20,000 bases of DNA. Origin: an uncultured virus (IMG/VR IMGVR_UViG_3300033163_000075). Taxonomy: Duplodnaviria > Heunggongvirae > Uroviricota > Caudoviricetes. The stretch lies in IMG/VR virus record IMGVR_UViG_3300033163_000075. The stretch is one strand, 5' to 3'. Below are positions 3,773 through 19,518 of this stretch, piece after piece. Below the pieces are notes generated by a model, which saw only the letters and a list, made by a program, of their open reading frames with translations, ran no database searches and had not been told where the DNA came from. The position numbers and the translations under genes are program-made. Numbering within the stretch: the first letter of the stretch is position 1; every line of letters starts with the position of its first letter.

Positions 3773-6493
3773 ATGGCTGACAGAATAAAAGGCATAACCG
3801 TGGAAATCGGCGGCGATACGACCGGCCTTTCCAAAGCCCTCTCCGGCGTAAACAAAGAAATCAAATCAACTCAGTCGCAGCTAAAGGACGTCAACAAACT
3901 CCTAAAGCTCGACCCGACAAATACCGCGCTGCTCGAACAGAAACAGAAGCTCCTACAACAGGCAGTCTCCGAAACGAAGGAAAAGCTCACACAGCTGAAG
4001 TCCGTGCAAGACCAGATGGATGCTGGACTTAAAAACGGTACCGTCACCCAGCAGCAATATGATGCATGGCAGCGTGAGATCATAGAGACCGAAAACGAGC
4101 TCAAAAACCTCGAACAGCAGTGTCGGGAAACAGATACTTCTATCACGGCAACACTCCGGGCGACCGGCTCTAAACTGCAGGAGGTCGGCGGGAAAATATC
4201 TGATGTCGGCACGAGCCTATCGACGCATGTAACGGCTCCCATTGTCGCCATCGGTGCTGCCTCCATTGCTGCCTTTAACGAGGTGGATGCTGGCCTCGAC
4301 ATCGTTGCGCAGAAAACTGGTGCTACCGGCGATGAGCTGGAGGATATGTGCCAGATCGTAAAAGACCTCGCCACGGAGATACCGACGGACTTTGAAACTG
4401 CCGGTGCTGCTGTCGGCGAGGTCAACACCCGTTTCGGCCTGACCGAGCAGGCGCTGGATGACCTCTCGGCAAAATTCATCAAGTTTGCCCAGCTCAATGA
4501 TACCGATGTTTCGACATCTATCGACAATGTATCCTCCGTCATGAACGCCTTCGGCATGGACGCTTCTGAGGCGGATAATCTTCTGGATGCTTTAAATGCC
4601 ACCGGTCAGGCCACCGGCATTGATATGGATACACTGGCAAACGCCCTCTCCTCCAATGCCGCGCAGCTGAAGGAAATGGGACTCACTGCCCAGCAGGCCG
4701 CTGGCTTTATGGGCATGGTTGAAATGTCCGGTCTTGATACCTCTGCCGCTATGATGGGTTTAAAGACTGCCATGAAGAATGCAACGGCAGACGGTAAAAC
4801 ACTGGATCAGGTGCTTGCGGAATTTTCTGCTACCATGCAGGGAAGCGGCAGCGATGCAGAAAAGCTGCAAGCGGCTTATGACCTTTTCGGAAGTAAGGCC
4901 GGTGCCTCCATTTATAATGCCGTGCAGACCGGAAAGCTCAACCTGTCGGATTTCTCCAGCTTCCTCGGAGATTTTGAAGGCAGTGTCGAGAACACCTTCA
5001 ATGAGACTCTCGACCCGATTGACCAGTTTCAGATGACGATGAATTCTCTGAAGGAAACCGGTGCAGAGGTCGGCAACTCCCTGATGTCAGTTCTTGCTCC
5101 TGTCCTAAAAGAGCTCTCTGACAAGCTAAAATCCCTCGCCGAATGGTGGAACAACCTCGGAGAGCCTATGCAGCAGATGATCGTAAAAATTGCGCTCGTG
5201 GCTGCTGCAATCGGGCCGGTACTTATAATCGTCGGCAAAGTTATATCCGCTGTTGGTACCATTATGACGATTATTCCTACTGTTACCACTGCTATGGCCG
5301 GAGTAAAGACGGCGATGGCTGGTCTGAATGCTGTCATGGCGGCAAATCCGATAGGCTTGATCATTACGGCCATCGGTCTACTGGTAGCTGCATTTATCTA
5401 CCTGTGGAACAACTGCGAGGGCTTCAGAGAATTCTGGATCAACCTCTGGGAAAAGGTCAAGGAGATCGCCATTACTGTATGGACGGCGATCAAGGACTTC
5501 TTCGTCAGTGTCTGGGAGGTAATAAAGAACACCTTCACCACTGTGGTAAATGCAATCAGCAGTTTTCTTACCACAGCTTGGAATACGATAAAAAGCACGG
5601 TCGAAACCGTGATGAATGCCATAAAGACGGTTATCTCTACGATCTGGAATGGCATCAAGAGCTTTTTTGAAACAATATTCAATGCAATCAAAACTGTGGT
5701 GACTACTTACTTCAATATCTACAAGACGATCATCGAAACCGTCCTGAACGTGATAAAAACCGTGGTTACTACTGTTTGGAACGCGATAAAAACAGCTGTT
5801 GAAACTGTCGTGAATGCCATAAAGACGGTCATCACCACCGCATGGAATGCCATCAAGACTACGACCTCTACGATTTTCAATGCCGTAAAGAGCGTGGTCA
5901 CTTCCGTTTGGAACGGCATAAAGAGCGCGGTCATGAATGTGGTGAATACCATGAAATCCGGCATCAGCAACGGCTTCAATGCGATCAAGAGCACGGTGTC
6001 CAATATCGTAAATGGAATCAAGAGTACCATCTCGAATGTGTTCAATACCATCTGGAGCACGGTATCCGGCATCGTAAACAAGCTAAAGAGCGTATTCAAT
6101 TTCAGCTGGAGCCTGCCGAAGATCAAGCTGCCGCATTTCTCCATCACAGGCAGCTTTTCGCTGAACCCGCCATCCATACCGCACTTTTCTGTGGACTGGT
6201 ATAAGAAGGCGATGTCCGGCGGCATGATCTTAAAGGATGCGACCATCTTCGGCCAGAGCGGCGGCACGCTTCTTGGCGGCGGTGAGGCCGGTGATGAAGC
6301 TGTGGTCGGTGTGAGCTCGCTGCGCTCCATGATTCAGGATGCAGTAAGCAGCGCTACTCTCAGTGTTTCAGGTGACCAGCCTCTCATCAATATCGAGGAA
6401 ATGAGTGTCAGAAGCGACGACGATATCCGGAAGATTTCTCAGCAGCTCAATACTCTGCTGACTGCCGGGCGCAGGGCGAAAGGACTGGTGTAA
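3773..6493 (+). CDS. Tape measure protein
   Basis: 906 aa; IKGITVEIGGDTTGL N-terminus, coiled coils, hydrophobic segments, repeated W/F-x-x-IK units with 11/22-aa spacing, C-terminal GEAGDEAVV. Confidence 0.95.
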   Translation: MADRIKGITVEIGGDTTGLSKALSGVNKEIKSTQSQLKDVNKLLKLDPTNTALLEQKQKLLQQAVSETKEKLTQLKSVQDQMDAGLKNGTVTQQQYDAWQREIIETENELKNLEQQCRETDTSITATLRATGSKLQEVGGKISDVGTSLSTHVTAPIVAIGAASIAAFNEVDAGLDIVAQKTGATGDELEDMCQIVKDLATEIPTDFETAGAAVGEVNTRFGLTEQALDDLSAKFIKFAQLNDTDVSTSIDNVSSVMNAFGMDASEADNLLDALNATGQATGIDMDTLANALSSNAAQLKEMGLTAQQAAGFMGMVEMSGLDTSAAMMGLKTAMKNATADGKTLDQVLAEFSATMQGSGSDAEKLQAAYDLFGSKAGASIYNAVQTGKLNLSDFSSFLGDFEGSVENTFNETLDPIDQFQMTMNSLKETGAEVGNSLMSVLAPVLKELSDKLKSLAEWWNNLGEPMQQMIVKIALVAAAIGPVLIIVGKVISAVGTIMTIIPTVTTAMAGVKTAMAGLNAVMAANPIGLIITAIGLLVAAFIYLWNNCEGFREFWINLWEKVKEIAITVWTAIKDFFVSVWEVIKNTFTTVVNAISSFLTTAWNTIKSTVETVMNAIKTVISTIWNGIKSFFETIFNAIKTVVTTYFNIYKTIIETVLNVIKTVVTTVWNAIKTAVETVVNAIKTVITTAWNAIKTTTSTIFNAVKSVVTSVWNGIKSAVMNVVNTMKSGISNGFNAIKSTVSNIVNGIKSTISNVFNTIWSTVSGIVNKLKSVFNFSWSLPKIKLPHFSITGSFSLNPPSIPHFSVDWYKKAMSGGMILKDATIFGQSGGTLLGGGEAGDEAVVGVSSLRSMIQDAVSSATLSVSGDQPLINIEEMSVRSDDDIRKISQQLNTLLTAGRRAKGLV
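5440..6100 (+). repeat. Degenerate coding repeats (11/22-aa period) in the tape measure gene; boundaries approximate
   Basis: Recurring WNTIK, WNGIK, FNAIK, WNAIK, VNAIK units and DNA motifs such as TGGAA(C/T) and AATGCCAT. Confidence 0.7.
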
Positions 6494-6494
6494 C

Positions 6495-7274
6495 ATGGGA
6501 TTTTCATTTAACGGAACAACCTCCCAGTCTATGGGACTTGCGACAAGAATTACAAACGAATACCGGATGCCGGATCTTAGGAACAACACGATCACCATGC
6601 CCGGACGGCACGGTGTATTTGATTTCGGAGAAACGGTATCCGAGCGAAAGATACTGATTTCCTGCTTCATTCCTCCGGGAAAAACAGACGAGCAGTTTCT
6701 TTCAAAGAAGGACGCTATTATTGAATGGCTGAATCCGGATAACGGCCTCTGCCAGCTCATTCTGGACAAGGAACCGGGACGAGTGTATGAAGCAAGGCTT
6801 ACGTCCGGATTCTCCTTTGACCGGGCAGTCCGTAATTCCTGCACCTTCGATTTGGAATTTTTCTGCCCAGACCCTTATGGCTATGCCATATCAGACGAGA
6901 CCTTTGATTTTGCGGAAACCGGAACCTTTACTGCGTCTCGCACTCTTGGGAATATCGAGTCTTACCCGGTCTACTCCTTAACGGGTGTAATTCCTTCCGG
7001 GACGGACTCGTATATCTCCATAACCACAAACGGCAGCGAGCTTCAGATCATTGGACGGCTTGCCGCCGGAGAAACATTGATTATTGACTCCGATCTGATG
7101 ACGGCAAAAGTAGTTGATTCTAATGGAGAAACCCTCCGAAACGGTCTCCCGCTTTTGTCGGAGCTGAATTTCCCGGTCTTAAATACGGGAGATAATACCA
7201 TCGTGATTGCTGTGGTCGGTACGAGTACAACATTTACGGAACTGAACATTCAAGCCAGAAGCCGCTGGAGGTGA
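6495..7274 (+). CDS. Distal tail protein (Dit)
   Basis: Directly after the tape measure gene; MGFSFNG start, PGRHG, L.LDKEPGRVY.AR, F.CPDPYGY, FP.L..G.N.I and RSRWR end typical of siphophage Dit. Confidence 0.88.
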   Translation: MGFSFNGTTSQSMGLATRITNEYRMPDLRNNTITMPGRHGVFDFGETVSERKILISCFIPPGKTDEQFLSKKDAIIEWLNPDNGLCQLILDKEPGRVYEARLTSGFSFDRAVRNSCTFDLEFFCPDPYGYAISDETFDFAETGTFTASRTLGNIESYPVYSLTGVIPSGTDSYISITTNGSELQIIGRLAAGETLIIDSDLMTAKVVDSNGETLRNGLPLLSELNFPVLNTGDNTIVIAVVGTSTTFTELNIQARSRWR

Positions 7275-7280
7275 TATTGC

Positions 7281-9803
7281 ATGGCTCTTAAAAATATATT
7301 GAATACCCAAGATGCCTTCACCGGCGAGTTCCCGGCTGCATGGGCTCCCGACGGTCTCTGGCGTTTTAACGAGTCCGAACCGGATGCAGATGATTATCTG
7401 GCGGATTCCTCCGGGAAGGATCGCAAGGCATATATTCATAACTGGAGCGGAACAACCGCAGATATGAAAACAGGCAATTTCGGTCGCTATTTTCAGATGA
7501 ACATCAATAATCCTTCATCGGAGAAAACCTACCTGAAGGTAGAAAACGACGGCAGCATCTTTTCAAGCCTCGGTGAAACCATCGTGGTCGGCGGCTGGAT
7601 GAAGCCCACGACATATTCAGTCGGCAACACCTATACTCCGATCTTGAATACCCGCTATGGTTCTGGACAGCCGATTTTCTATCTGTCGCTGATCAGAGGA
7701 AAACCGAGAATTATGCTGTATAACTCCTCCGGTTCTCTGATCCTCGATACGTCGGTAACGCCATCATTCTCTTTGCTAAACGGTTACTGGTATTTTATCG
7801 CCTGTGTGATCAAGCCTAATGCCAAGACAGCACAGTATATCCTTGGCGATAAGAGCTCCGGCACGATTTGGCAGTCAAATGTGTTGACCTTTACCGGAGA
7901 GCTGAATCGTAGCTGCGTGGCTGACCTCATCTGGGGAATGCACGCAGACTCCTACTGGTATGCAGGCGGCTTTGATGATTGGTTCCTCGACTGTGATTCT
8001 GATCTAACCGCCGATGACCTTGCAGAATATTTTCTGGAATCGCTCTCCGCAAACGGTGCAGATCTGACCGGTGATGTGGACGCTCTGACGACACCGGATG
8101 TCGTTACGCTTCGAGCTACAGACTCTGTCTATCCGTCAAGCGGACAGCTCATTACTGCAGCAAGGGACTGTGGCGTGACTGGCAACGGCAGAGTTTCTGT
8201 AAAAGCAGATTACTCTCCGGGAGAGACCTCTATCTCGCTTGTGGAAACAGCCACCTCAGATGACCTCTCCACTTGGACAGAGTGGCAGGCTGTCGGTGCA
8301 AACGGCGAGCTGGAATCTCCTACAAGGAAATACATCAAATACCGCGTCACGCTTTCTACCACAAATACAGCAAGGACGCCTACGCTGACATCTATCAGTC
8401 TGTACGATAATCCAAAGCCGCTCTATACCAAACTTGGCTATGCAAGACCGGTCATTCTGGACTCAGACGGGAATGTAGAAGCTGTGCTGGATAACGCCTA
8501 TGACATCATCGTGACCAGTGAGATCAACGGCGTGGATGAGCTGGAATTTAAGCTGCCGTTTCAGGACAGCAAACGCGCCTATATCGATAACGAAAAGACC
8601 GTGCGTATTGTCAGCGATACCTATCGCATCCGCACGATTACGGACGACAAGGAAGAAAGCGGCAAGGCCATCACCACGGTCTATGCAGAAGCGGCGTTCT
8701 ATGATCTTGCCTATTCCGTGAAAAAGGATGAGATTACCTTTAACGCAGACATGGCTGATGTGCCGATAGCTTATGCTCTTCAGGGAACTGACTGGGATAT
8801 GGGCACGGTTAATGTCTCCACAAAGCGTACTTGGACTTGCTCTGAGAAAAACGCGCTGGCAATTTTGCGTGCAGTACAGAACATTCACGGCGGCGACCTG
8901 ATTTTTGATAACGCAAACAGGATCGTGAAGCTCCTGACCTTCTCCGGTGAGGATTCCGGCGTGCTGTTCTGCTACAAGAAAAATATGAAATCCATCCAAC
9001 GCGTCATTGATACGACCAGCCTGATTACAAGGCTTTACGCCTATGGCAAGGACGGCATGACCTTTGCTTCGATCAATGGCGGCAACGAATATGTGCAGGA
9101 CACGACCTATACTTCCGAAATACGAATTGCTACGCTGGATTGCTCGAACTTCACCAATCCATATCAGATGCTGGAATATGCCAACATGCGACTTGCAGAC
9201 TATGCCTCTCCGCGTATCTCCTATGTGCTAAAGGCGATGGATCTGTCAGTATTGACCGGCTATGAACATGAAACATGGGCGCTGGGCGATACGGTCATGG
9301 TGAAGGATGATGACCTGAACCTGTCTGTAAAGACCAGAATCGTCCGCAGGGAATACAACCTGCAGGAGCCTTGGAATACGGTGCTGGAACTTTCCACTAC
9401 CCTCCGGGAGCTGGGCGATTCCTCCTCACGCTGGGATAGCGCAGCCGATACGCTGGAGTCTACCGATCTGATAGACAGTCAGGAAATGAAGGATCTGGTG
9501 CCGTTTAATCACCTGCGTAATTCCAGAGCAGATTCCGGTCTTACCTACTGGCAAAACTCCGGATTTACCGTGGATGCAGATAATGGCGTATCCGGCACGG
9601 CTTCCTTCAAATGCGAAGGTGCGCTGAATACCACAAAGAGTCTTTCACAGACCATAACGCCCGCCAACCGGCAGTGCTATACCTTTTCGGCGCAGATTGC
9701 CTCTGAGAATCTCTCAAAAGGTACGAATGGACAGGTGGGCATTGAGGTGACCTTTGAATACGAGGACGGAACAACGGAAACACGATTTATAGACCTGATC
9801 TGA
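7281..9803 (+). CDS. Tal / tail spike-like protein: N-terminal LamG/ConA-like domain, central prophage tail hub domain, C-terminal partial carbohydrate-binding-like domain
   Basis: GLWRFNE..DSSG, GGWMKP, WYFIACV and FDDW (LamG-like); from about aa 390 EINGVDELEF, ITRLYAYGKDG and LGDTVMVKD (Tal hub-like); C-terminal NHLRNS...YTFSAQI; follows Dit. Confidence 0.82.
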   Translation: MALKNILNTQDAFTGEFPAAWAPDGLWRFNESEPDADDYLADSSGKDRKAYIHNWSGTTADMKTGNFGRYFQMNINNPSSEKTYLKVENDGSIFSSLGETIVVGGWMKPTTYSVGNTYTPILNTRYGSGQPIFYLSLIRGKPRIMLYNSSGSLILDTSVTPSFSLLNGYWYFIACVIKPNAKTAQYILGDKSSGTIWQSNVLTFTGELNRSCVADLIWGMHADSYWYAGGFDDWFLDCDSDLTADDLAEYFLESLSANGADLTGDVDALTTPDVVTLRATDSVYPSSGQLITAARDCGVTGNGRVSVKADYSPGETSISLVETATSDDLSTWTEWQAVGANGELESPTRKYIKYRVTLSTTNTARTPTLTSISLYDNPKPLYTKLGYARPVILDSDGNVEAVLDNAYDIIVTSEINGVDELEFKLPFQDSKRAYIDNEKTVRIVSDTYRIRTITDDKEESGKAITTVYAEAAFYDLAYSVKKDEITFNADMADVPIAYALQGTDWDMGTVNVSTKRTWTCSEKNALAILRAVQNIHGGDLIFDNANRIVKLLTFSGEDSGVLFCYKKNMKSIQRVIDTTSLITRLYAYGKDGMTFASINGGNEYVQDTTYTSEIRIATLDCSNFTNPYQMLEYANMRLADYASPRISYVLKAMDLSVLTGYEHETWALGDTVMVKDDDLNLSVKTRIVRREYNLQEPWNTVLELSTTLRELGDSSSRWDSAADTLESTDLIDSQEMKDLVPFNHLRNSRADSGLTYWQNSGFTVDADNGVSGTASFKCEGALNTTKSLSQTITPANRQCYTFSAQIASENLSKGTNGQVGIEVTFEYEDGTTETRFIDLI

Positions 9804-9816
9804 AGGAGGGATTTCT

Positions 9817-10008
9817 ATGGCTTCATTTACACACGTGGCACAGGATGTCTCTCCTCAGTATGGCCGCGTCACAAAGATCACCATCCGGGTATGCGTGACC
9901 GACTGCACTGGAACTGTATATATAACAGATATGCTCCTGCAGGGCGGCTCCATCGCCACCGGCTGGGTAGGCCATGTATCAGAAATTCAATGGACGGAGG
10001 ACGGATAA
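9817..10008 (+). CDS. Small tail-associated protein (63 aa) resembling the C-terminal half of a CBM-like beta-sandwich
   Basis: Strong RBS AAGGAGG; GTVYITDMLLQGG..ATGW motif; paralogous to the N-terminus of the next ORF. Confidence 0.7.
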   Translation: MASFTHVAQDVSPQYGRVTKITIRVCVTDCTGTVYITDMLLQGGSIATGWVGHVSEIQWTEDG

Positions 10009-10587
10009 ATGCCGGAGTTTACACGCTTTACAGAGACAATTACAAAAAAACAGGATAAGCGCGTCGTAAACATCACGGTAAAGCCCACCGTCATAGATTG
10101 CACCGGTTCGGTCTGGTTTACCGACTTGATGCTGCAGGAAGGCGATAAAGTCACAGGCTTTGTCATCAACACCGAAACGTTTCTGGAAAAATACGATGGC
10201 GATGATGCTACAGACGGAAAGAGGTTTTATAACGGTATCGTCCGCTCCGCTGCTACCTGCGTCATCTTCAATCTCGGTACCACTGCTGCCGGTCTTGACT
10301 ACAAGGTCTATCCGATTCAGGCGATGGCTGCCGGGTGTATATCGCTTGCGCTGGGTGAAGGTGCTCATAAGGCAACTTTCAAAGCAGCGGCTGCTGCCGG
10401 TGATGAATTTGACCTTTTTGCCTCTACAAGGGAGTGCCTGAAGAACGGCTCTGCAACATCCAAGGACGGCTTTTTCCAATACTCTGCTGCCGGTGACAGC
10501 AAGCACCCGATTACTGTGGCAGATAAAAAGTCTGCACGCATCTATGTTGAGTTTCAGGAAATGCAGGACGGAGGTGATGCCCTGTGA
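10009..10587 (+). CDS. Hypothetical tail-associated protein (192 aa)
   Basis: RBS GGAGG at 9996-10000; GTGA overlap with the next gene; N-terminal ~56 aa similar to 9817..10008. Confidence 0.75.
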   Translation: MPEFTRFTETITKKQDKRVVNITVKPTVIDCTGSVWFTDLMLQEGDKVTGFVINTETFLEKYDGDDATDGKRFYNGIVRSAATCVIFNLGTTAAGLDYKVYPIQAMAAGCISLALGEGAHKATFKAAAAAGDEFDLFASTRECLKNGSATSKDGFFQYSAAGDSKHPITVADKKSARIYVEFQEMQDGGDAL

Positions 10588-13055
10588 GCTATGATTATTT
10601 GAAAGGCCGCAAGTGCATGGTCTGGACATTCATGGGCAATTCCAGAATGTATCAGGCACTTGCCGCATATGGAGACCGCCTCTCGCAAGTAGGTCTCTTT
10701 TCTTTTAAGGTATCGCGCACCGGTGTCATCACGGAAAGCGGCGTGGCCATTTCCAATATGCTGACCTACATCAACCGATGGCCGCATATCAAATGGCTGC
10801 TGACGATATCCAACGATGGCACGAACAGTATCTTTGCTGCTCTCCGGGATAACACCGACGGCGCTCAAGATACCTTCCTTTCGGAGATCGTCCGCATTAT
10901 GGAAAAATACCCGTGGTGCGACGGCATCGACATCGACCTTGAGAAGGGCGACGGGTATTCCACGCACGCTGCCTCCACGGCAATGTTTCGGAATATCTAT
11001 AACACAGTAAAAGGCTATGATAACAGCAAACTCATAAACATCTGCCTGCCGGGTATGAATTCCATCAACGGCTCGGTCGGCGGCGAGAACTGGTGCGTTT
11101 ACGGCGACCTCAATGCTTACTGCGATACGGCGGCCATCATGAGCTATGGCATGGCGTGGGCAGGCTCTGCTCCCGGAGCCGTCTCTCCAAGGGACTGGCT
11201 GGAGGGCATTTACGACTATGCGGTCACAGTCATGAATCCGGAGAAGATATTCTTCGGCCTTCCTGCATACGGATGGAACTGGCAGATTTATGACCTTCCT
11301 GCAAACCTCGGTAAAACCTATCGCGGCACATCAAATACCTATTACGCGGCAAAGAACTGGATGACCGGGCAATACAACTTCACGGACGATGCTCCTCCGC
11401 AGCCCTTCATCCCGATCCTCGCATATTGGGATGACTACGATATGGTGCCTTGGGCGCTTCCGCAAGTCTACGACTTCATGGAAGGCAGGGACGCCACAAG
11501 CTATGAGTATCCTTTGATGAACGGAACCTATAACAGGCGGCATTACCTGACGGCTTACAGCAAAGAACAACACACAGAGTTCGGCACCATTTATGTGGAT
11601 GCGAATGGAACGACAAGCTCTTACTCCGGCATTGTGTCCTTTGAAAACGGCGTGGCCACTCTCGGTGACGCTGGCTCTGCCACATATTCCTTTTCCGTAT
11701 CAAGCGCCGGAACCTACGACATAGCCATCCGCCTCTGCTATCCCTTCTGGGATAAAAACGGCATCTATATTTCGATTGATGGCAACACGACGCATTTTAC
11801 GGAAAGCAGGCTCTGGTGGCCATATTGGAGAAGCACCTTCTGGACAACGCTCGCCAGCAACATTTCACTATCTGCCGGAACGCACACCATTGTGATATCC
11901 GTAGATGTAAAAGGCGTACAGTTTTACGGCTACCGTGTTTGCAGCAACTTTTCGGAGGCTCCCTCTGCGGGCACTGCGACCTTTACGCTCTCACCACGCC
12001 ACTTTATCGACGTGGACGGCAACGAGTGTCAGCCGGACAGAGCTTTCAAGCTCACCTGCGAAATGCTGAGGCGAAAGCCGGACTCTGCCCTTATCTGGTA
12101 TGAGGATTTCCGGGACTACGGTGTGCTGCAAACAAACTACTGGGCGACCCTTTCAGGCTCTTGGACGGTATGGCGCGAAGATGAATATTCCGAAAGCCGC
12201 GTCTACTCCCAGCTTGACGGCTCCGGAAAGCTCGCATGGCGATACGACGGCTTTTCCGATATTCATCTGCGGGCAAGGTTGGCCTTCCCTGCGACAGGAA
12301 GTGGCAAGGCCGGAGTATTCTGCGGTGATCTGTTCTGCTGCCTGAATTACAACACACAGGCCGTTGAATTATATAACGGCAGCACGCTACTTGGAAGCTA
12401 TAGCCAGACCATAGAGCGGACGGCAAATGCCGACCTTCGTACCAATCCATCCATGTACACAGTCGAGATGCGTATCCGTGGAAACAAGGTGCGTGTCTAT
12501 TCCGGATCTTCCTATACGCTGCGCTTCACAGCTACGGTCAGCGGCTTTTCCGGAGGCTATGCCGGATACCGGTCAGATAACCGGACGGTCTGCGAACTGC
12601 TCCGCCTTGGCGATGCATGGACTTACGAGCCCTACGAGCGCTTTGATGTTACCTTCCCGGACGGCACAGTTACGCAGTATGGAAGGATCAGCCGGTCGAA
12701 CGCCACATGGGATACGGAATTTCAGGTGTTTACGCTGACCTCGGATATCGAGGAGGATGCGACACGCAGCGAGAGCATTTCTCTGGATTATGAGTTCTAC
12801 CACTCCCATGAGCTTGCCCTGACCTGTGGCAACGATTATACGGTGACCATCACGCCAAAGGACATCGACATCTGGATAGCAAGGCTCTTTCTCGGTGATG
12901 CTGACGGCTTTTCCATCCTCTACTATCAGGACGTGGATTCGCTCGTTTACTGGGCAAATGAAGCGGCCTACCGCTGGGGAGTGAGAGGCTTTGCCATGTG
13001 GTCGCTGGGACAGGAGGATATGCGGCTCTGGGAGGCGCTACCAAAACAGATATAA
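10584..13055 (+). CDS. Glycoside hydrolase family 18 protein with a large beta-rich insertion, probably virion-associated
   Basis: DGIDIDLE (DxxDxDxE, aa 113-120), IMSYG, KIFFGLPAYG and C-terminal GVRGFAMWSLGQED; GTG start with GGAGGTG. Confidence 0.88.
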   Translation: MSYDYLKGRKCMVWTFMGNSRMYQALAAYGDRLSQVGLFSFKVSRTGVITESGVAISNMLTYINRWPHIKWLLTISNDGTNSIFAALRDNTDGAQDTFLSEIVRIMEKYPWCDGIDIDLEKGDGYSTHAASTAMFRNIYNTVKGYDNSKLINICLPGMNSINGSVGGENWCVYGDLNAYCDTAAIMSYGMAWAGSAPGAVSPRDWLEGIYDYAVTVMNPEKIFFGLPAYGWNWQIYDLPANLGKTYRGTSNTYYAAKNWMTGQYNFTDDAPPQPFIPILAYWDDYDMVPWALPQVYDFMEGRDATSYEYPLMNGTYNRRHYLTAYSKEQHTEFGTIYVDANGTTSSYSGIVSFENGVATLGDAGSATYSFSVSSAGTYDIAIRLCYPFWDKNGIYISIDGNTTHFTESRLWWPYWRSTFWTTLASNISLSAGTHTIVISVDVKGVQFYGYRVCSNFSEAPSAGTATFTLSPRHFIDVDGNECQPDRAFKLTCEMLRRKPDSALIWYEDFRDYGVLQTNYWATLSGSWTVWREDEYSESRVYSQLDGSGKLAWRYDGFSDIHLRARLAFPATGSGKAGVFCGDLFCCLNYNTQAVELYNGSTLLGSYSQTIERTANADLRTNPSMYTVEMRIRGNKVRVYSGSSYTLRFTATVSGFSGGYAGYRSDNRTVCELLRLGDAWTYEPYERFDVTFPDGTVTQYGRISRSNATWDTEFQVFTLTSDIEEDATRSESISLDYEFYHSHELALTCGNDYTVTITPKDIDIWIARLFLGDADGFSILYYQDVDSLVYWANEAAYRWGVRGFAMWSLGQEDMRLWEALPKQI

Positions 13056-13079
13056 CTTCATACACGGATACAGTTCACG

Positions 13080-13113
13080 AGGCTGTCTGCAAAATGCAGG
13101 CGGCTTTTATTTT
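13080..13113 (+). terminator. Rho-independent terminator between the tail module and the holin
   Basis: AGGCTGTCTGCA-AAA-TGCAGGCGGCTT hairpin (with G-U pairs) followed by TTATTTT. Confidence 0.75.
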
Positions 13114-13134
13114 GCACAAAGGAGGGATTTTCTC

Positions 13135-13548
13135 ATGAAAGAATTCTGGAACACGATCCAACTGGTATTTGCTGCTGTCGGAGGATGGCTTGGCTATTTC
13201 TTAGGCGGCTGTGACGGGCTATTGATTGCGCTGGTGATCTTTGTGACCTGCGACTACCTTACCGGCATCATGTGTGCCATTGCCGACAAAAAGCTCTCAA
13301 GCGAGGTCGGCTTTAAGGGAATCTGCCGCAAGGTGCTGATCTTCCTGCTGGTGGGCATCGGGAACGTCATTGATGTTCAGGTGCTCGGACATCCGGGAGT
13401 GCTCCGCACGGCGATCATCTTCTTTTACCTGTCTAATGAAGGACTGTCACTGACGGAGAACGCAGCACATCTCGGCCTGCCGGTACCGGAGAAATTAAAG
13501 GAGGTCTTGGAGCAGCTCCACGACCGTCACGATGAGGAGGAAAGATAA
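13135..13548 (+). CDS. Holin (phage holin family 4 / toxin-secretion-type)
   Basis: Start reassigned to ATG 13135 (RBS AAGGAGG); hydrophobic helices, [18 protein letters not shown] and [18 protein letters not shown] motifs; directly upstream of the lysin. Confidence 0.92.
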
Positions 13549-14521: not shown

Positions 14522-14541
14522 CTGAATATCCAATCTGCTAT

Positions 14542-14585
14542 GCCTGCGAGTGTTCTTCGGAATGCCCGCAGGCTTTTTTTATTTT
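14542..14585 (+). terminator. Rho-independent terminator after the endolysin
   Basis: GCCTGCGAGTGTTC-TTCG-GAATGCCCGCAGGC hairpin followed by TTTTTTTATTTT. Confidence 0.88.
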
Positions 14586-14638
14586 CCTCCGCTCAAAAAG
14601 GCAGTTCATCTCCAGTGGAAACTGGAGGTGGATATGTT

Positions 14639-14845
14639 ATGCCAAACGAAAACATGAAAGTTCAATCTGGATATTTCACACAGGAGCGGATTCAGGGCGA
14701 TCTGGACTACCGCCGGGCGCAGACAATCGCAAAGAAGATGCTCGATGACGGCCTCATTTCTGTGGCTGAATTCAACAAATTAACCGCCATCAATCGGGAA
14801 ACTTTCTCTCCCTTGTTCGCGGAAATAATGCCGAAAATCCCTTGA
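14639..14845 (+). CDS. Small 68-aa protein (SHOCT-like helical motif) preceding the recombinases; candidate accessory/directionality factor
   Basis: ATG 14639 with SD GGAGGTG at 14624-14630; KKMLDDGLISVAEFNKL resembles the SHOCT consensus; the longer start at 14540 overlaps the terminator. Confidence 0.7.
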   Translation: MPNENMKVQSGYFTQERIQGDLDYRRAQTIAKKMLDDGLISVAEFNKLTAINRETFSPLFAEIMPKIP

Positions 14846-14897
14846 TATGTAGTCCCTTTAGAGTGATGTATAGACGTACGGAAAGGAGGTACTTCCC

Positions 14898-16457
14898 TTG
14901 AAAAAAGTTACGAAAATCGCGGAAACAGCGAACTCGAAAGTTAAACTCAAGAAGATCAGGGTAGCCGCCTACTGCCGCGTCTCTACGGATTCCGATGCCC
15001 AGCTTGAAAGCCTTGAGGCACAGAAAACCCACTACGAAAATTACATCACATCCCGTGATGACTGGAAGTTCGCTGGACTCTATTTCGACGAAGGCATCAC
15101 TGGCACCAAGAAGGACAAGCGCCCGGAGCTCCTACGACTCATTGACGACTGCAAGGCCGGTAAAGTGGACTTTGTTATCACAAAATCCATCAGCCGCTTC
15201 AGCCGGAACACAACGGACTGCTTAGAACTGGTAAGAAAACTGCTCGCCCTGCACATTCCGATTTATTTCGAGAAGGAAAATATCAACACCGGCTCAATGG
15301 AGAGCGAGCTGTTTCTGGCAATTCTCTCCAGCATGGCCGAAGGCGAGTCTGTTTCCATATCAGAAAACAGCAAGTGGTCAATCCAGAAACGCTTTGAGAG
15401 CGGCACCTATAAAGTCAGCTACCCACCCTACGGCTACGATTGGGATGGCGAGCAGATGGTAATTAATCCGGAGCAGGCGGCTGTGGTAAAAGAAATCTTC
15501 GCAGCGCTGCTCTCCGGCAAAGGCACCCCCGCCATCGCAGATGACCTGAACCGGCGCGGCATTCCTACCAAGCGAAACGGACGCTGGACAGCCACAACCA
15601 TTCGCGGGATGCTCTCCAATGAGAAGTATGTCGGCGACTGCCTTTTCCAGAAAACGTACTCGGATTCACGCTTTGTCCGGCACAACAATCACGGCGAGCA
15701 GACACAGTACATGGTCAAGGATCATCACGAGGCAATCATCAGCCGGGAGGACTTTGAAGCTGCTCACGCTTTTATTCACCAGCGGGCAACGGAAAAAGGT
15801 GTCGTCAAAGGGAGCGACAAATACCAGAATCGCTACACCTTCTCCGGGAAGATCATCTGCGGCGAGTGCGGCGATACCTTTAAGCGCCGGATACACAGCT
15901 GCACCGGATACAAATACATCGCATGGTGCTGCAGTACCCACATCAAGGATAAAGATAAATGCCACATGCTTTTTGTAAAAGACGATGATCTGAAGCAGGC
16001 TTTCGTCACCATGATGAACAAGCTGGTCTACGCGCACAGGATCATCCTAAAACCATATGTGGACGCATTGAAAAACACTTCGTCTGATGACTCGCTTCGG
16101 CGCATTCAGGAAATACAGACCCTACTGGCGCAGAACACAGAAAAGCGCGAGACGCTGACAAAGCTCATGACACAGGGCATCATCGACCCGATCCTTTTTA
16201 ACAAAGAAACGAACGAGCTGCTTTCGCAGGCAGACAGTTTCCGGGATGAGATCAACGCTTTAAAAAACGCTGTTTCCGGAGATGTAACAAAGGTCACCGC
16301 AGCTACAGCGCTTCTGCACTTTACAGAAAAAGGCGGAATACTTCAGGAATTCGATGATGACCTTTTTAAAGAATATGTGAACCGCATCATTGTACGCTCC
16401 AGAAATGAAGTGTGCTTTGAATTGAAATGCGGTCTGACACTTCGGGAAAGGATGTGA
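14898..16457 (+). CDS. Large serine recombinase 1
   Basis: AAYCRVSTD catalytic Ser, DEGITGT, KSISRFSRN, PYGY recombinase domain, CGECG...CC...C zinc ribbon, coiled coil; TTG start with AAGGAGGT. Confidence 0.95.
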   Translation: MKKVTKIAETANSKVKLKKIRVAAYCRVSTDSDAQLESLEAQKTHYENYITSRDDWKFAGLYFDEGITGTKKDKRPELLRLIDDCKAGKVDFVITKSISRFSRNTTDCLELVRKLLALHIPIYFEKENINTGSMESELFLAILSSMAEGESVSISENSKWSIQKRFESGTYKVSYPPYGYDWDGEQMVINPEQAAVVKEIFAALLSGKGTPAIADDLNRRGIPTKRNGRWTATTIRGMLSNEKYVGDCLFQKTYSDSRFVRHNNHGEQTQYMVKDHHEAIISREDFEAAHAFIHQRATEKGVVKGSDKYQNRYTFSGKIICGECGDTFKRRIHSCTGYKYIAWCCSTHIKDKDKCHMLFVKDDDLKQAFVTMMNKLVYAHRIILKPYVDALKNTSSDDSLRRIQEIQTLLAQNTEKRETLTKLMTQGIIDPILFNKETNELLSQADSFRDEINALKNAVSGDVTKVTAATALLHFTEKGGILQEFDDDLFKEYVNRIIVRSRNEVCFELKCGLTLRERM

Positions 16458-16461
16458 ATGC

Positions 16462-16878
16462 ATGGGACATACTCCCTACGGCTACAGCATTGAAAACGGC
16501 TGTGCCACGATTAAAGAGGATGAAGCCAATAAGATACGAAAGCTCTATGAGAATTACATCTCCGGGATGGCACTGGCCAAGGCCGCTGCCGCTGCTGGCA
16601 TTGAAACCTACCACGGCACGGCAAAGCGTCTGATGGAAAACAGACACTACCTCGGAGACGATTTTTACCCGGCCATCATCGATCAGGAAACCTACGATAA
16701 AGCTGCTGCCATCCGTCTGGAACGCGCCGGGAAACTTGGCAGGCTGAACAGGAAAAAGAATGTAAAACACGCATTGCCTCCTACCGGCTTTCGCATGGCA
16801 GCGGCAGAGCAACATTATGAAGATCCGAGGCTGCAGGCAGAATACCTCTACAGCCTCATTGAAAGCGAGGTAAGCTAA
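16462..16878 (+). CDS. Stand-alone recombinase DNA-binding-domain protein (no catalytic domain)
   Basis: Starts [12 protein letters not shown], contains [11 protein letters not shown] and [19 protein letters not shown], matching the middle domain of the flanking recombinases; no RVST motif. Confidence 0.8.
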
Positions 16879-18446
16879 TGGGAAATGTTATGGTGATTCC
16901 GGCCAGACGACAAGTCGGAAATACAGTAAAACAATCAGATCAGAAAAAGCTCCGTGTTGCAGCCTACTGCCGCGTCAGCACGGATTCCGAAGAACAGGAA
17001 ACAAGCTACGAGGCTCAGGTCACACACTACACCGAGTACATTCAAAAGAATCCGGAATGGGAGCTGGCTGGCATATTTGCGGACGACGGCATCTCCGGCA
17101 CCAACACAAAAAAGCGTGACGAATTCAACCGAATGATCGACGAGTGCATGGCCGGTAACATCGACATGGTCATCACCAAGTCCATCAGCCGATTTGCCCG
17201 AAACACTCTTGACTGCCTCCAATACATCCGGCAGCTGAAAGACAAGAACATACCAGTTTATTTTGAGAAGGAAGCCATCAACACGCTGGACGCTAAAGGC
17301 GAGGTTCTGATCACAATCATGGCGAGCCTTGCCCAGCAGGAAAGCCAGTCAATGAGCCAGAACATCAAACTGGGACTTCAATACCGCTACCAGCAAGGTA
17401 AGGTTCAGGTTAATCACAATCGCTTCCTCGGATACACAAAGGATGACAACGGGCATCTGATCATTGATCCGGAGCAGGCAGAAATCGTAAAGCGCATCTA
17501 CCGAGAATACCTTGAAGGCTCCAGCATGGATAAGATCGCCGACGGGCTTATGGCTGATGGCATCCTTACCGGCGCTGGCAAGACAAAATGGCACACCAGC
17601 ACCATCAACAAGATTCTCCGCAACGAGAAGTACATGGGCGACGCGCTGCTTCAAAAGACCTATACCACAGACTTCTTAACAAAAAAGCGGATCAAGAACA
17701 ACGGCACCGTCCCTCAATACTACGTTGAGGGCGATCATGAAGCAATCATTCCGAAAGAGCTCTTCATGCAGGTGCAGGCGGAGCTTGTCCGTCGCCGGGT
17801 AGTCCACGTCAGCCCGACAGGCAAGAAGCGCAGTTTCTCCTGCAATCACTGTTTTGCACAGATGGTTTTCTGCGGTGACTGCGGTGAGCTTTACCGGCGC
17901 GTTCACTGGAACAACCACGGCTGCAAATCCATCGTCTGGCGCTGCATCAGCCGTCTGGAACCGGGCTCCGCAGACACAAACTGCACCAACCGGACGGTTA
18001 ACGAGCTCCTGCTGCAGGAAGTCACGGTCACAGCCATCAATCAGATTTTGACAGAGCGCGGCACCTTCCTAAAACAGTTGCAAGCCAATATCGCCAAGGC
18101 TGTAGTCAGCGCTGACACCCTCTCGCCGGACGGCATCCAAGCTCGGCTGGAAGAACTGCAAAAAGAGCTCATCAAGAAGGCAAACAACAAACAGGATTAC
18201 GATGCCATCGCTGACGAAATCCTCAGACTCAGGGAACAGAAGGAACAGTCCGAGGTCGACAGCCACCACCGGGAAGAAGCCATGAACCGGATCAAGGAAC
18301 TGCAGGACTTTATCTCCAAGCAGAAAACAGACATCACAGAGTTCGACGAAGCTCTGGTAAAAAAGCTCATCGAGAAGATCACCGTCTTTGCCGACCACTT
18401 CACTGTGAAATTCAAATCCGGGCTTGCAATCGATATCGAAGAATAA
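16878..18446 (+). CDS. Large serine recombinase 2
   Basis: [44 protein letters not shown]...C...C zinc ribbon, coiled coil; TAATG overlap with the previous gene. Confidence 0.95.
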
Positions 18447-18624: not shown

Positions 18625-19518
18625 TTAATATTCAACTCTATTACGTCCGTTACTTTTAGCCAAATACAGCTTTTCATCAGCATGTTTTATCAACTCGTCA
18701 ATGCTCTCACTTTCTGGTGATTTTAAGTAATGAATACCGAAGCTTGCAGTTATGTTAAATTGCTTGCCATTATATTCGATTACAGATCTTTCAATTGACT
18801 TTCGCATACATTCGGCTATTGACTTTGCAGTCTCAAGATCGGCTCCAGGCATGCAAATCAGAAACTCTTCTCCACCATATCTTGCGACCCAGTCAATTTC
18901 TCTTTTAAGACATCCGGATATTGTTATGGCAACATTTTTTAGAGTCTGATCACCGGCAGGATGTCCGTAATTATCGTTAACAGCTTTAAAATAATCAATG
19001 TCAGCCATAATTATAGATATTTCTTTTGATAAAAGCTTAGCGTTCAAAAGATCAACAGGTAGCTTTTCCATAATATATCGTCGGTTATACAGCCCCGTAA
19101 GTTGATCTTTAAAAGCAAGTTTGTTCATACTATCAATAAGCGCATGAATTCCTGTCAATTCATTACCCTTATCGTCAAGCGATTCAAAAAATAAACTGTT
19201 TGTAATATCTTTGAGAATCTCGACTACAACCTTTCTGTTATCTAAAATATAGGGGACTGCAGTCACTATGTATGTTTTGTCTTTTATATACTCAATTTTT
19301 ACATATGTCGTGTTGTCGTTATAAGCCCTCATGGAGATGCAATTATCGCACACTTTGTTTTTACCCCAAAAATCAAAACAGTGGATGTTGTTAATTAGAA
19401 CCTCCTTGTTTCCGTACTCAATAACTCTTTTTTGTAAAGGATCTACAATTCGCGTAAAATCACTGAGTTTACTAAATAACTCACCATTGGTTAAATAATC
19501 ATTAATATTATTTTCCAT
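18625..19518 (-). CDS. Diguanylate cyclase (GGDEF domain) with a Cys-containing N-terminal sensor-like domain; prophage cargo
   Basis: DQLTGLYNRR, DIDYFK.VNDNYGH..GD, REID I-site five residues before GGEEF, ADEKLY.AK.NGRN; RBS AAGGAAGGT; AT-rich. Confidence 0.95.
   Translation of the reverse strand: MENNINDYLTNGELFSKLSDFTRIVDPLQKRVIEYGNKEVLINNIHCFDFWGKNKVCDNCISMRAYNDNTTYVKIEYIKDKTYIVTAVPYILDNRKVVVEILKDITNSLFFESLDDKGNELTGIHALIDSMNKLAFKDQLTGLYNRRYIMEKLPVDLLNAKLLSKEISIIMADIDYFKAVNDNYGHPAGDQTLKNVAITISGCLKREIDWVARYGGEEFLICMPGADLETAKSIAECMRKSIERSVIEYNGKQFNITASFGIHYLKSPESESIDELIKHADEKLYLAKSNGRNRVEY

Follow-up and report, generated by a model that had tools for sequence, protein, structure and literature searches.

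A probable plug-and-socket joint at the siphophage tail tip, in which a small separate protein would complete the C-terminal half-domain of Tal

The stretch of DNA analysed here (the window, 20,000 nucleotides of the uncultured virus IMGVR_UViG_3300033163_000075) is a prophage late region that extends from the major capsid gene through the tail genes to the lysis genes. Within it the gene of the tail-tip hub protein Tal (840 aa, 7281..9803, plus strand) is followed on the same strand by a small open reading frame (ORF) of 63 aa, ORF63 (9817..10008), by ORF192 (10009..10587) and by the gene of an 823-aa glycoside hydrolase of family 18 (GH18) type, or minor tail protein (10584..13055). We consider it probable that these genes encode a conserved plug-and-socket joint at the siphophage tail tip, with the half-domain at the end of Tal (the socket) completed by ORF63 (the first plug) and with a second plug, at the N-terminus of ORF192, sharing the same socket. 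The last ~100 residues of Tal would make up only the initial two thirds of a small beta-sandwich and be unable to fold alone, and ORF63 would supply the missing strands (roughly residues 2-8, 18-27, 33-40 and 46-52), interleaved with those of Tal so that one domain is made of two chains, also in the virion. The paralogous plug of ORF192 would enter the same Tal socket, and its Dit-like sandwich (Dit, distal tail protein) may carry the translationally coupled GH18 enzyme. With Tal as a trimer, three sockets would be available to the two types of plug, and their occupancy may be mixed. The proposal is built on the anatomy of the locus, a controlled in-silico complex of Tal with ORF63, a deeply conserved split with no fused forms found, purifying selection, and the paralogy of the two plugs.

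Tal is a prophage endopeptidase tail protein, as indicated by two Pfam profiles above their cut-offs (PF18994 Prophage_tailD1 at residues 390-471, 61.5 bits with a cut-off of 23.6, and PF06605 Prophage_tail at residues 473-716, 245.4 bits with a cut-off of 31.3) and by the Dit gene located directly upstream (6495..7274, plus strand; Pfam Sipho_tail, E 2.8e-17, and SPP1_Dit, E 1.5e-05). It matches phrog_3475 from end to end (1-839 of the 841-position profile, 1156 bits). No Pfam family was found, even at E<=10, for the approximately 120 residues past Prophage_tail, where the putative socket is located (about residues 741-840, 9501..9800, plus strand). This half-domain is under purifying selection, with a ratio of nonsynonymous to synonymous substitution rates (dN/dS) of 0.09. 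An earlier reading of this DNA, made without database searches (the sequence-only reading), had claimed that Tal ends in an incomplete domain and then stops. The motifs that it quoted are present, the NHLRNS stretch beginning at 9507 (Tal N743), and the last 110 residues do not fold alone in a single-chain AlphaFold2 model, with a mean predicted local distance difference test (pLDDT) of 45.6 and a predicted template modelling score (pTM) of 0.32. Its label of “CBM-like jelly roll” (CBM, carbohydrate-binding module) found no confirmation, no match being significant. Neither the Tal half nor ORF63, the two parts of the composite domain, had any Pfam family at E<=10, and PDB searches found no solved relatives by sequence for Tal, ORF63 or ORF192. 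The PDB profile matches obtained (the Pizza propeller motif, leukocidins and MEK1) were chance only, and the CBM_4_9 clusters retrieved from the ESM Atlas at 0.80-0.81 are just weak leads.

The Tal half and ORF63 were modelled together with their own 25-row alignments (rows 63-100% identical). The interaction prediction score from aligned errors (ipSAE) was 0.72, 0.73 and 0.72, while the best of three controls reached 0.00. As a reference, the benchmark mark for this score was met by 116 of 157 solved complexes and by 2 of 215 mismatched pairs, a guide that is only rough here since own alignments were used. At least 95% of the contacts were shared among the complex runs and the pLDDT of the partner was at least 71. 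The modelled interface comprises about 320 residue pairs between ORF63 residues 1-54 and a continuous segment of the Tal chain (residues 44-98 of the modelled fragment). ORF63 residues 21-27 pair in antiparallel fashion with Tal chain residues 90-95 and 56-61, and residues 33-36 do so with 75-77 and 46-48. Such interleaved antiparallel pairing indicates one sandwich built from two chains and not two docked domains. In the same program, the pLDDT of Tal was 76 with ORF63 and 50-51 with unrelated partners. The complex model supports binding between Tal and ORF63, and the completion in trans of the Tal half-domain by the 63-aa protein, as put forward by the sequence-only reading, is borne out in silico by a confident interdigitated interface; that reading would have fallen with a Tal C-terminus that folds by itself or with a prediction devoid of contacts, and neither was obtained.

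The arrangement of the genes in the window is that of separate translation units. The 13-nt gap after the TGA of Tal contains, as read from the sequence, a Shine-Dalgarno AGGAGG (9805..9810, plus strand), and the frame of ORF63 is +1 relative to Tal. ORF192 keeps the frame of ORF63, its ATG abutting the TAA of the latter, and GGAGGA lies 7 nt before this ATG, while the GTG of the GH18 gene overlaps the TGA of ORF192 as GTGA and has GGAGGTG upstream. In PHROGs the four genes correspond to four separate full-length families, phrog_3475 (841 positions), phrog_3473 (66), phrog_12827 (194) and phrog_3432 (812). We compared this layout over related DNA from viral contigs (80 kept of 126 relatives) and species-representative genomes (80 kept of 256 relatives), to which we added 18 loci from three viral scans seeded with distant small ORFs and eleven annotated phage records. 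In all 84 complete loci a stop, a GGAGG-type site and a start were present between Tal and the small ORF, with gaps of 4-14 nt save in two loci where the chosen start overlapped Tal. A stop codon likewise separated Tal from the small ORF in 79 of the 80 genome loci, the remaining one being without upstream DNA. Among the 181 loci with the three pieces in order, the socket and a plug never shared one open frame (0/181) and neither did the two plugs (0/181), and all nine combinations of relative frames were present, so that a frameshift, programmed or accidental, is excluded. The module was found in Clostridia and in Bacillus, Geobacillus, Streptococcus and Microbacterium phages. Its parts carry distinct gene annotations in phages of Streptococcus uberis, Bacillus subtilis, Geobacillus (TP-84, GBK2, GR1), Weizmannia, Bacillus pseudofirmus, Erysipelothrix and Microbacterium; by tblastn, ORF63 matched 186 phage records, 163 of them from Microbacterium phages. 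Purifying selection was strong on both genes (dN/dS 0.13 for ORF63 and 0.11 for ORF192, with dS near saturation). Thus the split is old and obligate and not a product of decay. The idea of a single gene that decayed or was frameshifted, or of an error in sequencing, has no point in its favour and is refuted by these data (no fused locus, all nine frame combinations, a ribosome binding site for each gene, the dN/dS of ORF63 and the separate PHROGs families), so that we give it practically no credit. The argument of the sequence-only reading against decay, that the ORFs have their own ribosome binding sites and are out of frame with Tal, is borne out, and the conservation of the split point, which it had proposed to check, is complete over the loci examined.

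Fused forms were also looked for directly, and none appeared among the longer proteins listed or among 1.84 billion representative proteins; close homologues that are all fused, which the sequence-only reading had named as grounds for abandoning the idea, are thus not what we found. A phmmer search of ORF63 against the 1.84 billion gave 96 matches at E<=1e-3, none of them at the end of a Tal-like protein; nearly all were 40-115 aa long and a few were the N-termini of ORF192-like proteins. Two of the matches, of 935 aa and 518 aa, were rejected as repeat junk. A word-based search with ORF63 for longer proteins gave four matches, all singleton chimeras, and in a plug-profile search for longer proteins the best 120 of 169 matches were members of the ~190-aa ORF192 family, apart from P0001, an ORF63-ORF192 hybrid already among the four chimeras, and P0177, a protein of 276 aa that carries PF20441. 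The family phrog_22322, with 67 positions past the end of Tal, was considered as a fused form and dropped, ORF63 having no match to it at E<=0.01.

The two plugs are related to each other. ORF63 residues 4-63 align to positions 3-64 of the 66 in phrog_3473 (E 4.2e-26), and ORF192 residues 3-190 align to positions 5-192 of the 194 in phrog_12827 (E 7.3e-74). Compared by hhalign, the two families gave a probability of 98.85% (E 4.1e-17), columns 1-58 on 1-58, which bears out the earlier description of the ORF192 N-terminus as a clear paralogue of the 63-aa ORF. A hidden Markov model (HMM) of ORF63 run on the six-frame translation of the window hit only two sites, ORF63 itself (E 7e-43) and the N-terminus of ORF192 (E 4e-14), the latter module spanning residues 1-55 (10009..10173, plus strand). 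One socket-type half and two plug-type modules were present in 147 of 165 loci; the 18 exceptions were short or truncated. No second socket-type half was detected in the window, where the HMM of the Tal half matched Tal alone, and hhalign found no similarity between the Tal half and ORF192. The identity between the two plugs was slightly higher within a phage than between phages (0.344 vs 0.327, permutation p ~0.0006).

A residue pair at the modelled interface covaries in charge along 47 representatives below 90% identity. Tal E822 (9744-9746; residue 92 of the modelled chain) and ORF63 R24 (9886-9888) form one of the lowest-error contacts of the model, and their charge correlation is the most negative of the 800 variable Tal-by-plug column pairs (r -0.84). 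With K25 of ORF192 (10081-10083), which occupies the homologous column, E822 gave r -0.77 (rank 10 of 1080). When Tal 822 is E, there is R or K in ORF63 in 33 of 34 representatives and in ORF192 in 28 of 34. When it is K, R or N, as happens in Bacillus and Geobacillus phages, R or K is found in 0/12 for ORF63 and 0/12 for ORF192, and D or E appears two residues earlier in 10 of the 12 in each plug. This covariation supports the pairing. Judging from sequence comparison, the N-terminal plug of ORF192 most likely uses the same Tal socket as ORF63, because there are two plugs for one socket per locus, no second socket was detected in the window, and the charge flip is shared by both plugs.

Besides the plug, ORF192 contains a C-terminal beta-sandwich (about residues 93-187, 10285..10569, plus strand) whose model resembles the C-terminal galectin-type domain of Dit. 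The AlphaFold2 model of ORF192 alone was poor as a whole, with a mean pLDDT of 55.2 and a pTM of 0.59, and the sandwich was predicted with moderate confidence (pLDDT 56-89). In a structure search with VIA-align, this model (mean pLDDT 55) matched Dit of SPP1 (2x8k_A, Z 9.6, root mean square deviation 2.8, 112 aligned residues), Dit of Douge (8zdo_m, Z 8.7), a monocin tip (9j1k_K, Z 8.0) and phage p2 (2wzp_P, Z 8.0). The ESM Atlas gave SPP1_Dit at 0.77, only a weak lead. By sequence, no Pfam match, PF22768 of the Dit domain included, was found in 14 of 14 members of the ORF192 family at E<=1, nor in six of six distant homologues at E<=0.1, and hhalign of ORF192 with the Dit of the window showed no similarity (probability 0.2%). 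The resemblance of the C-terminal model to Dit agrees with the lead from the ESM Atlas and with the HHpred match to 4div that accessible parts of a report on phage TP-84 give for the homologue TP84_25 (PMC5889276). The protein encoded next belongs to GH18, with a match to PF00704 Glyco_hydro_18 at residues 64-255 only (E 4.3e-11, 43.5 bits, cut-off 29.6) and a full-length match to phrog_3432. The catalytic motif of the family is DxxDxDxE, and DGIDIDLE is present in the 823-aa protein. The last 40 residues (GVRGFAMWSLGQED...) resemble by eye the end of a GH18 barrel, and a CBM_35-like stretch at residues 341-441 scored 24.2 bits, under its cut-off of 28. A very large insertion may interrupt the catalytic barrel. 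To go by the model, the Dit-like sandwich of ORF192 may be the platform for this translationally coupled enzyme.

A homologous four-gene module is present in the Geobacillus phage TP-84 (TP84_23 to TP84_26), where it consists of a Tal of 877 aa, a small ORF of 69 aa, a 299-aa tail protein and a 991-aa GH18 glycosylase, although it shares little identity with the window (38% over the Tal half, 49% over the small ORF). According to the parts of the published work that are accessible, mass spectrometry of virions revealed TP84_23 and TP84_25 but neither TP84_24 (69 aa) nor TP84_26 (PMC5889276), and TP84_26 is a capsule depolymerase with soluble forms and a faint Western-blot band in purified virions (PMC10131341). 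An enzyme that is both free and bound to the virion would fit partial occupancy of an attachment site, without being a proof of it. In the same accessible parts TP84_24 is listed as “unknown”, and there is no mention in them of a split domain or of a shared N-terminal module (PMC5889276, PMC10131341).

Several of our results speak against the proposed joint or limit its reach. The ipSAE is the predictor's own confidence and the alignments behind it were shallow (25 rows, 63-100% identical), and Tal alone and Tal in the complex were modelled by different programs, the like-for-like comparison being that with the controls of the complex runs only. The representatives with K, R or N at Tal 822 fall together on one side of a single branch with weak support (71/97 in a tree of the Tal half with column 822 removed), so that the charge swap is one evolutionary event, kept through later divergence, and no statistical proof. 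As to the second plug, ORF192 K25 is less conserved than ORF63 R24, and the model of ORF192 sets its own N-terminal strands 14-38 against the C-terminal sandwich, with low confidence, in a way that fits a plug that folds on itself. Finally, TP84_24 went undetected in TP-84 virions as far as the accessible text of that report goes (PMC5889276), although the gel-band method could easily miss a protein of 7.9 kDa.

The modelling caveats bear on the possibility that there is no strand complementation at all, the Tal C-terminus being flexible or self-folding, ORF63 and ORF192 unrelated small tail proteins and the complex model an artefact. The evidence for binding is computational throughout and no complete domain family was matched significantly, as such a view would have it. 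However, all three controls gave 0.00 and the Tal half gained confidence with ORF63 only; the top charge-covarying pair is a modelled contact; and socket and plugs co-occur strictly. We find this explanation quite improbable.

ORF63 could also be the sole partner of the Tal socket, with the N-terminal module of ORF192 packing on its own C-terminal sandwich or on the GH18 protein or Dit, so that there would be no alternative halves. The AlphaFold2 model of ORF192 (pTM 0.59), in which strands 9-38 lie beside the C-terminal domain, and the VIA alignments to Dit galectin domains, which span residues 14-187, are in line with this, as is the looser pairing of ORF192 K25 with E at Tal 822 (28/34 vs 33/34 for ORF63 R24). 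In addition, genes are inserted between ORF63 and ORF192 in the contigs L084 and L128, indicating that the two are not an obligate unit. Yet the best conserved part of the plug, the motif FTDLMLQEG (ORF192 residues 37-45), is left as a low-confidence coil (pLDDT ~28-52) in the ORF192-alone model. No second socket-type half turned up in the window or in related loci, the Tal half and ORF192 are dissimilar, column 25 of ORF192 flips its charge along with Tal 822, and the excess of plug identity within phages, although slight, points the same way. On balance a single partner for the socket seems unlikely to us. If ORF63 acted only transiently, as an assembly chaperone or placeholder that completes the Tal half-domain during folding and whose position is later taken by, for example, ORF192, and were missing from mature virions, this would account for the failure to detect TP84_24 while TP84_23 and TP84_25 were found (PMC5889276, accessible parts) and for the ratio of one socket to two plugs per locus. 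But an interdigitated core of about 320 modelled contacts would not be swapped readily, gel-band mass spectrometry can easily overlook a protein of 7.9 kDa, and the conservation of the ORF63 tail (E56, I57, W59, D62 and G63) beyond the modelled interface suggests a lasting structural role; we judge such a displacement improbable.

The probable joint between Tal and its plugs has precedents in principle. Strand complementation itself is a known principle, and in the chaperone-usher pili (Fim, Pap) an incomplete beta-sandwich is finished by a strand of another chain (donor-strand complementation), giving a very stable non-covalent joint. As in these pili, the acceptor in the phage tail is incomplete and filled by strands of the partner (in silico, with an ipSAE of 0.72 vs 0.00 and the acceptor unfolded alone). 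The donor, however, would give about four strands (~54 residues, a third of the domain) and not one, and it comes in two paralogous forms, one free-standing and the other fused to another domain. The phage tail module, moreover, lacks chaperone and usher genes and has no sequence relationship to the pili, and its fold need not be Ig-like. Therefore, as far as the model goes, the Tal-ORF63 joint would work like the donor-strand systems while being no member of them. In the baseplates of Gram-positive siphophages the galectin-type domain of Dit holds peripheral receptor-binding proteins, and in Dit/BppU baseplates attachment takes place by contacts of folded domains or insertion of arms and is not known to involve a domain split between genes. 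The C-terminal model of ORF192 is similar to the galectin-type domain of Dit (Z 9.6 to 6.6 with adaptors of the Dit/BppU type: SPP1 Dit 2x8k, p2 ORF15 2wzp, TP901-1 4v96 and 80alpha 6v8i); unlike Dit, ORF192 has no N-terminal ring domain and no sequence similarity to the Dit of the window. In the literature searched, which covered few subscription journals, we found neither the split domain described nor any function given to the small gene, and no split Tal domain appears in the accessible parts of the cryo-electron microscopy papers on NF5 and Douge. The novelty lies in the family and how widespread it is, and in a single socket accompanied by two paralogous plugs.

If the joint exists as proposed, the tail tip would contain a two-chain domain in many Gram-positive siphophages, a large and widespread group that covers human-gut prophages of the proposed order Heliusvirales, the cultured phages TP-84, GBK2 and BSTP5, and more than 160 Microbacterium phage records. 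Two very common “hypothetical” tail genes (phrog_3473 and phrog_12827) would also acquire a function, and the joint would explain how a GH18 depolymerase-type protein might be mounted on the virion and be a small, defined one usable for engineering tail-tip cargo. A bolder version is possible, if doubtful: the socket would be universal, the free cap ORF63 competing for it with the plug of ORF192, and the ratio between both would set the number of depolymerase arms per tip and the amount of free enzyme, so that the stoichiometry could be tunable, as the sequence-only reading had suggested, and modules could move between phages of Bacillota and Actinomycetota with Tal left unchanged.

Some observations on the plugs stand apart. 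The C-terminal tail of ORF63 (residues 56-63, 9982-10005) has E56, I57, W59, D62 and G63 invariant in 25 sequences, and its W..GH..E..W pattern can still be seen in distant phages. In the model with the 110-residue fragment of Tal it is not part of the confident interface, and it may bind something else. The protein P0001 (219 aa, from a singleton contig) is a hybrid of ORF63 residues 1-55 and ORF192 from the DCTG motif onward, the expected product of a recombinational deletion between the paralogous plugs or else of an assembly collapse. The contig L080 has a small ORF with a premature stop (49 aa, 1674-1820) and the rest of the module intact, and is the one such viral contig.

In the rest of the window, the major capsid gene (1-1224) opens the late region, the tail tube and tape measure (3773-6493) genes lie between it and Dit, and downstream of the GH18 gene come a holin, an endolysin with GH25, CW_7 and LysM domains, a SHOCT-domain protein and two large serine recombinases. 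The stretch 14540-18446 contains the SHOCT-domain protein and the recombinases (14898-16457 and 16878-18446), with a small Recombinase-domain ORF between these two, and is followed by a GGDEF gene on the minus strand (18625-19518) that probably marks host DNA past the end of the prophage. The 7.2-kb tail-tip module (6300-13500) is 95.4-96.9% identical in DNA to five contigs (L086, L087, L089, L091 and L094) whose assemblies are labelled Clostridium sp. CAG:169, Faecalicatena faecalis, Agathobaculum desmolans, Listeria costaricensis and Catenisphaera adipataccumulans, i.e., three classes of Bacillota. A nearly identical module across three classes suggests a very mobile prophage, or contaminated or mislabelled assemblies.

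In some loci extra genes sit exactly at the junctions between the genes of the module. In L084 (5258-6565), genes for an XRE-like protein, membrane proteins and a zinc-ribbon protein separate the small ORF from ORF192, and L128 is similar. At the junction of ORF192 and GH18, L045 (5864-6613) has a 249-aa ORF, MerR-like by eye, and extra DNA is also present in L049, L051, L054, L066, L068 and L082 (~570 nt in four of them; in L068 and L082 it measures ~1,050 nt, like that of L045). In Microbacterium phages the ORF192 homologue and the large minor tail protein are separated by an added gene of ~160 aa, for which Pfam gave no match (L005 4738-5232; L189 2231-2710).

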